Shown: positions 27,201 to 57,200 of the stretch, piece after piece
How positions within the stretch are numbered: the stretch's first letter is position 1
Layout: each line of letters begins with the position of its first letter
From: Lingula anatina
Lineage: Eukaryota; Animalia; Brachiopoda
Assembly: GCA_051362555.1 (NCBI GenBank)
Contig: CM120644.1
Location: 24,016,534 to 24,080,533 of the forward strand
Length of the DNA: 64,000 bases
Reading direction: 5' to 3'
The notes under the pieces: model-generated
The model's input: the letters and a program-made list of their open reading frames with translations, nothing else
What the model was told of the DNA's origin: nothing
Databases searched by the model: none
Translations under genes and position numbers: made by a program

Positions 27201-30200
27201 ATTTATTTATTTATTTATTTATTTTCCTGAAGTAAAAAGAAAAAGAAGATGGCAGACAAGATTCTGTCCCAGCGTGTGCGTGATCTTGTCCCGGAGTCCC
27301 AAGCCTACATGGACCTGTTGGCTTTTGAGCGAAAGTTGGACTCCACCATCATGAGAAAGAGGCTGGATATACAAGAGGCGCTGAAAAGACCAATGAAGGT
27401 ACCAATACACATGTATTACTTATATACAGACATGAGCTTTTTCTGCAGAAACACGGAATTCCGCGTTTTTTTTAGTTGATTTTTATAAGGAGGTGCCCAG
27501 ACCCCCGGCCATTTAGGTGTTGGGTCCCATGATAAATGTTTACTTTTTATTATTATTGTTATTATTATTTTTTTTTTTTTTCATTTTTTTTTTATGAAAC
27601 GTAGGCTCATGTCTGTTTATAACTTTTTCTTTAGTATGTTTGAATTTTATTTACAACATGAAGGTCTTGATATAATGCGTATTTCTCTTTATTACAGTAT
27701 GATTTAATTTCATTTACAACTCGCAGAAACCAATACACTGCATATATTTATCTTTATTACAGTATTTTATTTACAACATGAAGACACCAATACACTGCAT
27801 ATATATCTATTTATTACAGTATTTTATTTACAACATGAAGAAACCAATACACTGCATATATATCTCTTTATTAAAGTATTTTATTTACAACATGAAGAAA
27901 CCAATACACTGCATATATATCTCTTTATTAAAGTATTTTATTTACAACATGAAGAAACCAATACACTGCATATATATCTCTTTATTAAAGTATTTTATTT
28001 ACAACATGAAGACACCAATACACTGCATATATATCTCTTTATTAAAGTATTTTATTTACAACATGAAGAAACCAATACACTGCATATATATCTCTTTATT
28101 ACAGTATTTTAATTACAACATGAAGAAACCAATACACTGCATATATATCTATTTATTACAGTATTTTATTTACAACATGAAGAAACCAATACACTGCATA
28201 TATATCTCTTTATTACAGTATTTTATTTACAACATGAAGAAACCAATACACTGCATATATATCTCTTTATTACAGTATTTTATTTACAAATCGCAGAAAC
28301 CAATACACTGCATATATATCTCTTTATTACAGTATGTTTGAATTTTATTTACAATATAAAAAACCAATATACTGCATATATCTCTCTCTTACATAAAGTC
28401 TTGAGTATCCGGTGTGAGATAACTATGGGGAATTCTGATGAGGTGCACAATAGCATGGTCAACAGTAAGAATTCCATAACTACATCAAGAGATAAGTAAG
28501 AGCCAATATGATAAAGATTGCCAAAATTGCCTTCTCATCTTGCTTCTATCACTCACAATTTCCCTCTGACAATCTTCGATATCTGGTTTTATTTTTGAAA
28601 AATGACAATAGTTTTCGGTTGTCATGCTCATTTTTGAGAAAGAAACCTGAAAACTAGACATTATCTCACACTGAATGTTCGGGTAAAATATGCAAGCACA
28701 TCAGTGCAGCTCCTGCTATCTTAATGGTGATGGCATGCCTCATCCAGCAGCTTGGGGGTAATTAACTATTCTATGCTGAGTAATCTGATTCTGCTGATCG
28801 TACTTTGGCAAGAGAACCCTGCAGAGATGGACCGACCCAGCTAAGAATGCCCCCTTACACTATTATAGCTAAAATTGGCAATGTAAAAAATTTTAAAAGA
28901 CCCAAACTCTAATTATCTGTGTAGAATTCACATTGAAACTAACATGGACAGCTGCCTTTGTGAAATTGATTTCCCAAAGGTCTGGGTCTAGTTAACACTA
29001 TCTAAATGTCCACTGTAACAGTACATAATAAAAACCTGACATTGAATTACATATATATATATTTTTGCAAAAAATATGATGTGGACTTTTATTATTTAAT
29101 TGTGTCTCCATCTTAGACTGTTTTGATGTCCCTGCTCTCTCAGTTTGATTTTTAATGACTGTCCATTTGACAGCTTTGCTGCCTTAATTTTAAATTTAAG
29201 TCAGCATTTCAGTTTGTATTTTTCACAAGGAAGAATACCAACAATATTGTGTTATGCTAATATAGTTACTCTTCTACTCTGCTGTCACAGCTGTCCAGTT
29301 GACCACTACGGTAACCTTAATATTTTATTGTTCCTCCAACTTGTCCTCATTATCAGTGGTAAAATGACATTTCTGTGAACACCAGTATTGTGCTGTTCTT
29401 ACAGCAGTGTACAATATGAAGAGTATGTCTTTCTTTTTAAGTACTGGTATGTGTCAACTTGGCCCTTTTCCCCTATCACCACCAGCTGGCCAGCAGGGTT
29501 GATGGCTAATGCTACAGGATGATTCAACCCATCATCTTTAGTGGCAATGTATCTGATGAACTCTCCCTGTGGACTCAGTGCCACTATCCTGTCATTGTAA
29601 CAGTCAGCAATGAAGATGTGCCCATAGCTGTCTGTACACACTCCCTGTGGTTCCCTTAGCTGACCATCACCACTGCCTCGTGTGCCATACTGGTACAGCT
29701 GATCACCAGTAGGTGACAGCACATATACACAGTTATTGCCCCAGTCTGATATCACAATGTTATCATCCACCTTGTTCACTGTGATGTACTGGGGGTATTT
29801 ACACATATTGAGTAGAATAGTGTCCAGGAGCTGTCCACTGGCTGCATGGAATGTGAAGATGGCTTTCTTTTCCCTGTCACAAACCATCACATGACCTTGT
29901 CTGTTCAGTGTGACACCACATGGCAATTTAAGTATACCATTACCCATGGTTGCTATTTGGCTGCCTTCGATGGAATACACTTCGACATATGATTCTGTTG
30001 TTATATACACTTGACCAGTCTGTGACACAGCCACATCGACTGGTCTGTTTAATTCAATGTCAAATTTAAACTCTCCAGCATGTGTATACATTTTTGTTCT
30101 GTTTTTATTCACAACAAACATGTGTTCTTCATTTAATATGGCTAATCCACTTACTTCAAAATAAACATCTGTATCGCCTTTTAACGGAAGACTAAAAGAA

Positions 30201-54200: not shown

Positions 54201-57200
54201 TGACCTGACCATAGCAACTGTCAGGTCAATATGAGCACCCATTGTGTATTGACTGGTGATCGATCAAGTCGTATTGTATTAACTCTTAAGCTCAGGTTAT
54301 AGAAATAGAGCCATCGATCAGATATAATTATGTATTTTTGTTCTTGGTTTGTGTGAAATAAATCTCCCCGGTTATCATGGCCTTTTTGATGAAAGTTTTC
54401 CTATCTATAATTATGCATTATAAACTTAAATTGCATGTTTTTAATGTGATACATGCAATATGCAATGCAATGTACTGTATTTACTATCCTTTTTTGATCT
54501 ACTAGGCAGAGAAATATAATTTACGGTTTATTTCTTAAGCTGACCTGGCAAAGAGAAGATTGAAAGGAATAATGCAGCTTGATGTTTCATGACACAGTAG
54601 TATTATGTTTCCACTAAGCTCAGGTTAAAGAAATAAGTTCAACAAAGCATGTACATTTGATTTCTGTTTGTGTCTATTTTTGACTGCAGTATCAACTTCT
54701 ATCAATCGCATGAAATTATTCCCCAATTCAACACAACTTTTAATCAGCATTTAACTGTTTTCAGACTATTTGATAATAAAATATTAATTATTATAAAATT
54801 GGATTGATTTTTTACATGTGAAAAAAAAAATTTTAAAGGCCTCATTTGGTGTAATATGTGGGAAGCATAACTATAATACTGAGAATGCACATGCAAAAAT
54901 GAAACAAAATAAGTTCTATAAAAAAAAAAAAAAAAAAAAAAAAAACATCATTGCAACCTGTGTTTCATACAACAAGAGATTCATGGTATAAGTTGTTTTG
55001 TAAAAACTTGCACCATGTCTGTAAGATGAGTCTGAAAAAAATATTGAATTTTCCTTTCAAAAGAAATATAATTTTAACCAAAGAAAATTTAATAATAAAA
55101 AATAAATAAAACGAATAAAATAAAAAAAAATAGATGCATCATTTTGAACCAACTTGTAGTAATGTACCAGTTTTTCTTATAGTCCATGTGACAGCTTTGA
55201 TGCCTTGTTTTAAAGATTGTATCAGTTTCAGTATGGATACATGTATAATTGTAAACAGTATTATGATATATTAAATTGAATAAAGTTTTTCCTCCACTCT
55301 GCTATAACAGCTGTCCATGACACAAACTACACCTCACGTTCTGGTTTCTACAACCCATCCTCATTATCGGTGATAACACAAAGTTTGAACAGCAGTTAGA
55401 TATATTTTCACCATTGTACAAAGTGATCAGTATTTACTGTAAGTACTGAAATGTCTTAACCTTGCCCCACTGTTCTGCTACCACCAGTTGGCTGCCAGGG
55501 TTGATGGCTAACGCTGTTGGACGCTTCAACCCATCAGACTGAGTGGCAATGTATCTGATAAACTGTCCCTGTGGACTCAGTGCCACTACCCTGTGGTTAA
55601 GAAAATCAGCAACGAAGATGTGACCGTAGCTGTCTGTACACACTCCATGTGGTTCCCTTAGCTGACCAACACCACTGCCTCGTGTGCCATACTGGTACAG
55701 CTGATCACCACTAGGTGACAGCACATGTACACAGTGGTTATCCCGATCTGATATCACAATGTTATCATTCAAACCGTTCACTGCGATGTGCATTGGGCCT
55801 GCACACATACTGAGTGGAATAGTGTTCATGAACTGTCCACTGTCTGCATGGAATGTGAAGATGGCTTTCTTTTCCATGTCACAAACCATCACATGACCCT
55901 GTCTGTTCACTGTAATGCCACATGGCTTCTCCTGGCCCATGGTTGTCACCTGCTGACCTTTGGTGGAGAAGACTTTCACACATTTGTCAGCCCATGATGT
56001 GATATACAGGCGACCAGTCTGGGACACGGCCACATCAAACGGTCTGTTAGGTTTAATGTCAAATTTAAACTCGCCAGTAGGCGTGAATGTTTTTGTTCTT
56101 TCATCTCCATTATCCACAACAAACACTTTCTCTCCATCTGTGGCTAGCCCGGATATGTACATTACTCTATCATCTTTCAGCTTAGCATTGAAAGAATTTA
56201 CACATTTTGCATTCTCCAAGAAATCAGGAGAGCAGGGTGCTGATGTTGGAATTGTTCCCTGTCCAGCTAATGGAGGTTGTGTCTGTACTGTCACCTGTCC
56301 AAACATGGCTTCCAGTCCGGGAGAATGTGGTGGAGACCTTGGATACGTTCCGGCCAATGGAGTTTGTGGCTGCACCGCCACCTGCCCTAACATGGCTTCC
56401 AGTCCTTCAGCAAATATCTCACCAGGACTGTAGGATATTTGTGCTGGTGTGTCTGGAGTTGGGAGATGGGTTTGCTCCATTATTTTCAATCTGTCTCTCA
56501 AAGCTTTTGCATGAACCATGATATCAGAGTCAGTGCCATTTGTAACCAGTTGTTGGGCAAAGTCACAGGCACCTTGCAAGGAGCCATGGTGGAGTTCAAG
56601 AATGTCCTTGTTTGCCTCATTCTGCTTCTTTCTGACGTCGTAAGCGGCATTCACTTCAGATATCAGTATTTCTTTTCTCTCATTAAGCAGCAGAACAATT
56701 TGCTGCGCTTGGTTTTCAATCTCATTGATAATGACTTCCCTGATACGAGAGTCCTCTATTTTATTGGCTGTTTCCTTGGCAACTGCAGCTTTAAACCTGT
56801 TTGTAGTCTTCATGGTTTTAGCTAAATCGCCTTGGAGGTTTTCTCTGTTGATTTCTGCAACTTTGTCAACTGATGAAATGCGATGTCCACTATGTTCTGT
56901 TACTATACACTGGCCACATATAACAGTATCGTCATCTTCACAATAGTATTTTACTTCTTTATTAGGATGTTTCCCGCAACGGGTGGTCGTCTTTGCAATG
57001 ACCTGTGTCACTGCTGCTGCATTGGTCTGTTCCTCTTCTAATGCCGGTTTGTCTACTTGCTGCTGGGTTATGACATCCTTGGCCTTGCCAAAGACCAAGT
57101 TCTTTTTCAGTTGATTTAGTCCACCAGCTGGAATCTGGGTCTCTTCTCTACAAATTGGACAAGTAAATGTCTGGTTTGGAGTAAGAGATCTTTGGGCATA

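Follow-up and report, generated by a model that had tools for sequence, protein, structure and literature searches.

TRIM proteins with a C-terminal NHL propeller (class VII, or Marin subfamily C) include TRIM2, TRIM3, TRIM32, TRIM71/LIN41, Mei-P26 and Thin, with Brat as a TRIM-like relative, and combine a RING, a B-box and a coiled coil with a six-bladed NHL domain. The group 2 or class IV TRIMs with a PRY-SPRY domain (TRIM5alpha and the fish ftr, btr and trim35/hltr) are clustered, lineage-specific RING-Bbox2-coiled-coil genes with positively selected hypervariable ligand loops and swapping of the C-terminal domain (PMC3137616, PMC2533329). Here, we describe an invertebrate locus that has the architecture of the former and the evolutionary pattern of the latter: an array of six paralogous RING-Bbox-NHL genes with a putative coiled coil (g1 to g6) in 64,000 nt of the brachiopod Lingula anatina (Brachiopoda; assembly GCA_051362555.1, contig CM120644.1, positions 24,016,534-24,080,533, forward strand). 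We refer to this whole stretch as the window and give coordinates as positions within it, numbered from its first letter.

In TRIM surveys, the fast-evolving TRIMs that face pathogens are regarded as a SPRY-based innovation of vertebrates, all other TRIMs being conserved; one such survey reports the fast-evolving group to be absent from invertebrates, and notes an expansion in fly and worm within the filamin-related subgroup (PMC2533329). Tandem TRIM expansions have been suggested, in general terms, to answer external aggression (PMC3503706), and variable propellers have been noted in invertebrate immune expansions (PMC8195603). Our literature search, made outside subscription papers, returned nothing that describes the Lingula family or positive selection on NHL faces in expanded invertebrate TRIMs. 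A 2018 paper on the Lingula immune system may list these genes. The main texts of two Lingula genome papers (PMC4595640, PMC13121700) and one supplement of PMC4595640 contain neither "NHL" nor "tripartite".

Our main finding is a statistical signal of positive selection at the binding face of the propeller, with a nonsynonymous to synonymous rate ratio (dN/dS, ω) that exceeds 1 in most of the models and is of borderline significance in the most conservative one. With that qualification, the locus shares with group 2 TRIMs both clustered expansion and positive selection on a ligand face. We read g1-g6 as a putative repertoire of intracellular immune sensors with a hypervariable propeller, driven by pathogen sensing, and give this reading a probability of roughly 0.55; on a scaffold that stays constant, each paralog would offer a binding surface of its own. 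An expansion of TRIM-NHL genes under positive selection would mean that an invertebrate has reached a PRY-SPRY-like pattern via another domain; it also points to what may serve for specific recognition in the cytosol of animals that have neither interferon-era TRIMs nor adaptive immunity. As the positions are defined, about 30 in number, and sit on a stable propeller of 270 residues, the ligand question becomes directly testable, and the family amounts to a natural binder library on a single scaffold.

Structure of the propeller and its faces

An AlphaFold2 model of the g4 NHL domain (47979..48779, minus strand), computed from a 29-row alignment, is a six-bladed propeller with a mean predicted local distance difference test score (pLDDT) of 95.3 and a predicted template modelling score (pTM) of 0.92. 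Its best fold match is the NHL domain of TRIM3 (7qrw; Z 36.2, root mean square deviation (rmsd) 2.2, 259 aligned), where matches within 1 Z count as tied; the closest solved folds are TRIM3, TRIM2, Thin and LIN41 (Z 34-36, rmsd 2.1-2.7, identity 23-31%). The strands of the model agree with the blade assignment behind our face mapping, except that strand a starts at the blade proline.

The likeness to class VII covers the RING, the B-box, a putative coiled coil, the fold and the closure of the propeller by an N-terminal strand. Unlike that class, the Lingula genes have no filamin domain, a single detected B-box, an uninterrupted coding open reading frame (ORF) and a tandem multi-copy arrangement, and their top face is hypervariable instead of conserved. 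By architecture we would call the products TRIM-NHL proteins and, by the features tested, probably not orthologues of TRIM2/3 or LIN41. From the PRY-SPRY TRIMs they differ in using an NHL propeller and not a B30.2 domain for recognition, in their invertebrate host and in an antiviral role that is putative.

The top face of an NHL propeller consists of the b-c and d-a loops (PMC4015489). Its RNA contacts have been listed for zebrafish LIN41 (PMC5908797) and were mapped by hand via an alignment with mouse TRIM71. They recur at five positions per blade: the two residues ahead of the blade proline, the one that follows it, and two residues past strand b. Over six blades this gives a contact-equivalent class of 30 codons.

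Variability by position class

Among the window genes, mean pairwise identity (15 pairs) is lowest at contact positions (0.29) and rises through other top loops (0.66) and bottom loops (0.75) to strands (0.79). Hypervariable NHL loops across tandem copies had been proposed in an earlier, sequence-only reading of this DNA, and these figures, together with the entropies given below, bear it out; the variable stretches that it placed directly behind strand b and in the neighbourhood of the blade proline can also be seen by eye in the alignment. The strand "cores" that it called nearly invariant are so, but not fully, and several of them contain bottom-face loops.

Because the contact class was fixed after the window genes had been seen, we ran a test on rows from outside the window, which is independent but at the protein level only. 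The outside set holds 33 NHL rows, made up of two fragments and 31 rows from 30 of 39 Lingula proteins, the other nine being excluded for NHL models that were missing or badly broken. Contact positions have a mean entropy of 2.85 bits; the values for other top loops, bottom loops and strands are 1.40, 0.92 and 0.77. Of the 29 scorable contact columns, 25 exceed 2 bits; of the 38 bottom-loop columns, two do (Mann-Whitney p 1e-11). All of the 35 most variable columns lie on the top face. Bottom loops are no more variable than strands (p 0.14), and ordinary loop variability therefore fails to explain the pattern.

The N-terminal part behaves differently from what the sequence-only reading had supposed when it spoke of a conserved E3 module. 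When g1 or g6 is set against the other genes, identity is 0.50-0.59 in the RING-Bbox-coiled-coil part, 0.68-0.75 in the non-contact propeller and 10-27% at contact positions, so the N-terminal part is not more conserved than the propeller scaffold. Among g2-g5 the RING-Bbox-coiled-coil part is 80-94% identical.

Codon-model tests of selection

Codon site models, which had been put forward as the check on this pattern, were fitted to the 268 NHL codons and gave likelihood ratio test (LRT) statistics of 55.7 for M2a against M1a (19% of sites at ω 4.6), 59.1 for M8 against M7 and 55.8 for M8 against M8a; leaving out gapped columns and the blade-1 loops, they were 35.8-37.7. With fixed position classes, ω was 0.57 in strands, 0.61 in bottom loops, 1.10 in other top loops and 3.79 at contact-equivalent positions, the last differing from ω=1 with an LRT of 62.2. 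This value was 3.75 (LRT 50.2) without gapped columns and the indel-rich blade-1 loops and 3.8-4.3 in all six runs that left one gene out, and ω exceeded 1 for each of the five contact position types (2.5-8.0). Allowing double and triple mutations improved the log-likelihood (lnL) by 30 and gave a contact ω of 3.0 (p 2e-9), with a synonymous rate in the contact class 1.05-1.19 times that of the rest. The expectation of dN/dS above 1 at the variable sites thus holds under most models and becomes borderline once the synonymous rate is left free.

Recombination was examined by an incompatibility test, which detects it over the whole gene (p 0.001) and not within the NHL domain (p 0.67), and by simulation. 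The 18 null simulations, of which nine were plain and nine had six reshuffled blocks, reached LRTs of at most 7.7 and 2.3; the maxima in the reshuffled nine were 7.7 (M2a) and 2.2 (class test). Sites with a posterior above 0.95 fall on the top face, as judged by topology, in 18 of 22 cases, with 85 of the 268 codons belonging to that face; the claim that variable sites cluster on one face and are not scattered was upheld in this sense. The N-terminal 343 codons give a weak selection signal (LRT 8.0, p 0.018) in a gene with detected recombination, and the RING has an ω of 0.42 and invariant zinc ligands. As far as the evolutionary pattern goes, the analogy once drawn with the variable loops of TRIM5 PRYSPRY fits, and it fits finTRIM too.

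Relatives and the propeller on non-TRIM proteins

A database protein search gave 77 matches, with every one of the best 39 carrying the name Lingula anatina. Window genes reach at best 62-72% identity to these 39 proteins, and none of the five intact products has an exact match in the protein collection. A HMMER search of cluster representatives returned mainly long multi-repeat proteins at about 26-43% identity and added two close fragments (P0096 and P0115).

Five Lingula proteins (P0035-P0039) carry an NHL domain of this family without the TRIM part. Roc scores above the Pfam cut-off in two of them (P0035 and P0037) and COR in one (P0037); weak Pfam matches are to Roc in P0036 and P0038 and to CARD in P0039. 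Judged by these domains, two of the fusion proteins are clearly Roco (Roc-COR GTPase) proteins, and P0039 is a probable CARD protein. A search of longer proteins listed no close fusion beyond P0035 and P0037-P0039, which is weak evidence. The five share identities of 0.91 in strands and 0.94 in bottom loops, and 0.26 at contact positions.

A quick tree of 40 rows, from which eight fragmentary rows were excluded and which has long-branch warnings at the root, groups the fusion proteins together (Shimodaira-Hasegawa-like approximate likelihood ratio test (SH-aLRT) 99) inside the Lingula family (100). A long branch separates this family from nine filamin-type outgroups, with no named TRIM2/3/71 sequence in the tree; the outgroup TRIM-NHL proteins carry filamin PF00630. 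The first 30 residues of P0035-P0039 are near-identical in all five and homologous to the TRIM linker ahead of the NHL domain, which suggests that the fusions acquired their NHL exon from the 3' half of a TRIM gene. It is this linker remnant, and not the tree, that gives the direction from TRIM to Roco. Among 47 sequences, only g2, g3, P0035, P0036, P0037 and P0039 have a three-residue deletion motif in the loop between blades 4 and 5 (alignment columns ~560-572). Because g2 and g3 share it with four of the five fusions although the tree does not group them together, it suggests conversion between TRIM-type and Roco-type loci.

Proposed mechanism and published parallels

Under the immune-sensor reading, the propeller would bind differing foreign ligands, either an invader protein or a nucleic acid, and the RING ubiquitin ligase would mark them or signal. 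Two propellers would be joined as a dimer through the coiled coil, and when such dimers gather on an invader structure that is multivalent, their RINGs would come together and ubiquitination would be switched on. In TRIM5 and TRIM21, coiled-coil dimers and B-box contacts cluster the RINGs on a multivalent target and thereby trigger ubiquitination. Because the Lingula Roco and probable CARD proteins start with the TRIM linker remnant followed by NHL, the propeller may serve as a common recognition cassette for TRIM, Roco and probable CARD proteins. Carried further, and only tentatively, this would give a modular immune-receptor system in which one NHL cassette, born in a TRIM gene and exchanged by conversion, is wired to a RING or to Roc-COR and death-fold outputs; such a system would be a counterpart of both TRIM5-type factors and NLRs, and part of a wider, undescribed class of TRIM-NHL sensors in marine invertebrates.

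The repeat domain of the brown-algal ROCO proteins consists of leucine-rich repeats (LRR). These candidate immune receptors resemble the Lingula NHL-Roco proteins in placing a diversified repeat domain on a Roc-COR switch; they differ in being diversified by exon shuffling and splicing (PMC11378527) and are not known to be linked to TRIM genes. The Podospora NWD/HNWD NLRs (het-e, het-d) likewise have a propeller whose scaffold evolves in concert, with diversifying selection at a few set positions per repeat that lie on the interaction face, and they join the same sensor to different effector domains (PMC4986451). Their propeller is of the WD40 type with near-identical internal repeats and works with a NACHT switch, whereas the Lingula blades are mutually diverged and the output would be a RING E3 (or Roc-COR). 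By analogy, it may count in favour of a recognition role that the published proteins evolving in this way have a recognition function that is either known or proposed (PMC3137616, PMC4986451).

Weighing the explanations

Several points weigh against a selected repertoire of immune sensors. The codon analysis comprises six sequences only and relies on purpose-written GY94 codon code and naive empirical Bayes. Given a free synonymous rate, the 30 contact codons have an ω of 1.9-3.0 with p only 0.02-0.06, and the tree-free Nei-Gojobori pN/pS of the contact class is 1.26, because the counted pS is high there as well (0.37 vs 0.21). Of the 19 high-posterior sites in the gap-free subset, only 11 are on the top face, with six in strands and two in bottom loops. 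Faces were assigned by loop topology and not from model coordinates, one-face clustering is likewise topological, and the contact class postdates our view of the window data. RNA reads that might stem from the window copies are scarce (2 of 206 at >=99% on g4-g5), and upstream of the genes there is no common interferon-, NF-kB- or STAT-type motif, but one isolated match in three of the six copies (no shuffle control).

The alternative that stays closest to our reading keeps the same selection and makes the ligand RNA, the genes then being diversified RNA-binding E3s against viral or transposon RNA. The positions that vary are the hand-mapped RNA contacts of LIN41, and NHL surfaces are known to evolve different RNA-binding modes (PMC5908797); the top loops hold 12-17 Lys/Arg and 10-16 Asp/Glu, whereas the bottom loops are acidic. 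The basic contacts themselves are not kept: at LIN41's eight basic columns, again mapped by hand, Lys/Arg fills 7 of 46 occupied cells and no column is invariant, so that the link to the LIN-41/TRIM71 surface made in the sequence-only reading stands for the positions but not for their chemistry. Contact positions comprise 4-7 basic and 3-6 acidic residues per copy, with a charge that varies from copy to copy and is net acidic in g5, and therefore no common basic pocket is evident. We consider RNA an unlikely ligand, though the likeliest of the alternatives. The next in line, and a doubtful one, does without adaptive selection and has the surface of redundant copies drift under relaxed constraint, with mutational clustering or short gene-conversion tracts. 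It can draw on the strong preference for multi-nucleotide changes (lnL +30), on the borderline test with a free synonymous rate, and on an overall ω that is high everywhere (0.4-0.7) in a recombining gene with one copy broken. It has difficulty with the equally exposed bottom loops, which are constrained like strands (ω 0.61; entropy 0.92 vs 0.77, p 0.14), and with the multi-nucleotide model, in which the contact synonymous rate is about that of the rest and ω stays near 3; such a null also requires that mutation run about 2.7-3.4 times faster at scattered contact codons than at the codons beside them.

Host proteins might instead be the partners, with the genes acting as diversified adaptors in allorecognition, in gamete or intragenomic conflict, or in the turnover of a fast-evolving host family. 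Fungal het-type WD40 propellers under the same selection pattern serve conspecific non-self recognition (PMC4986451). A cytosolic RING E3 architecture fits cell-autonomous defence better, as does the recurrence of the propeller on Roco proteins and a probable CARD protein, and no partner locus was seen in the window; we rank this explanation just behind drift, at a low probability. Finally, the genes could be ordinary developmental TRIM-NHL regulators like TRIM2/3, TRIM71/LIN41 or Brat, a notion favoured by the closest solved folds (Z 34-36) and by database names of the "TRIM2/3-like" kind. Identity to TRIM3, TRIM2, Thin and LIN41 is just 23-31%, however, none of the five intact proteins has a filamin match, and the binding face, which is conserved between TRIM71 and LIN-41 (PMC5908797), is the least conserved part here. 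The contact ω, the outside-row entropy and the lost basic contacts largely refute this developmental role, which we regard as highly improbable.

The gene array

The array occupies 29399-57320 on the minus strand, with the six genes head-to-tail and one of them (g2) broken, in a window of 36% GC, that is, AT-rich animal DNA. The span of 29420-56200 given in the sequence-only reading captured a real array but cut g6, which reaches 57320. Apart from the stop in g2, each gene is a single uninterrupted coding frame of 608-628 codons, and DNA identity among the six is 73-96%; tblastn across the window found no further gene remnant. The intact genes are g1 (29399..31225, 608 aa; RING 31180-31043, B-box 30889-30767, NHL 30214-29435), g3 (43379..45205, 608 aa; NHL 44176-43382), g4 (47976..49808, 610 aa; RING 49763-49626, B-box 49469-49347), g5 (52099..53940, 613 aa; NHL 52911-52102) and g6 (55434..57320, 628 aa; NHL 56210-55437), all on the minus strand. 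A 29-codon duplication lies in the linker preceding the NHL domain of g6. For parts of g4 there are exact matches among public DNA contigs (259 bases, run X1; possibly the source sample).

Pfam recognizes RING, B-box and NHL in all five intact proteins, finds no filamin family match in any of them at E up to 0.001 and gives no SPRY/PRY match, the C-terminus being NHL. The zinc-ligand patterns of the C3HC4 RING and of the B-box are complete in all six genes, and the intact RING makes E3 ligase activity probable. A region of about 130 residues follows the B-box where the coiled coil is expected, an assignment by position alone.

Recombination and duplication history

The second gene (g2, 38246..40072, minus strand) has the same architecture, broken by an in-frame stop (38639..38641) in blade 3 of the propeller, and may be a pseudogene, an allele or an assembly error. 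Only one contig (run X2) is listed as differing at 38641; it has a sense base there, yet it is indistinguishable from g3. According to trees and sliding distances, the N-terminal half of g2 is closest to g4 and its NHL domain to g3, making it a recombinant. The duplication unit measures about 4-5 kb; some 600 bp upstream of the start codons (e.g. 31226-31900, 49809-50490) can be aligned in all six copies, and this upstream DNA is itself a mosaic, with g2 like g4, and g3 in part like g1 and in part like g5. Signs of birth-and-death evolution are one broken copy out of six, one recombinant, and the fact that none of the 39 database proteins compared exceeds 72% identity.

Expression

The family is transcribed. 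On g4-g5, three RNA runs without treatment labels gave 36, 103 and 67 reads, of which 1, 1 and 0 are at least 99% alike, and most reads continue into unlike sequence. Run X12 has no reads on g2, which does not count as a test. The loose ends of RNA reads at 48184 and 52311 carry the three-residue deletion motif (read by eye).

Other features of the window

Between g1 and g2, two 484-bp direct repeats that are 100% identical (31995-32478 and 34373-34856) enclose 1894 bp without an ORF of more than 89 codons. Their ends are not TG..CA and a target duplication is not evident; the pair is either a recent non-autonomous insertion or a local duplication. Adjoining the array at 59047-59954 (plus strand) is a broken Tc1/mariner-type transposase, with HTH_Tnp_Tc3_2 and DDE_3 in separate ORF pieces. 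Farther off, 7037-7732 (minus strand) is a Glu-rich, low-complexity open frame with a 21/45-bp repeat and no Pfam match, and 23329-23598 is a 270-bp palindrome that is 90% self-complementary. Repeats at 27707-28335 and 209-1565 comprise a 57-bp minisatellite (11 copies) along with 159-bp and 401-bp tandem repeats.

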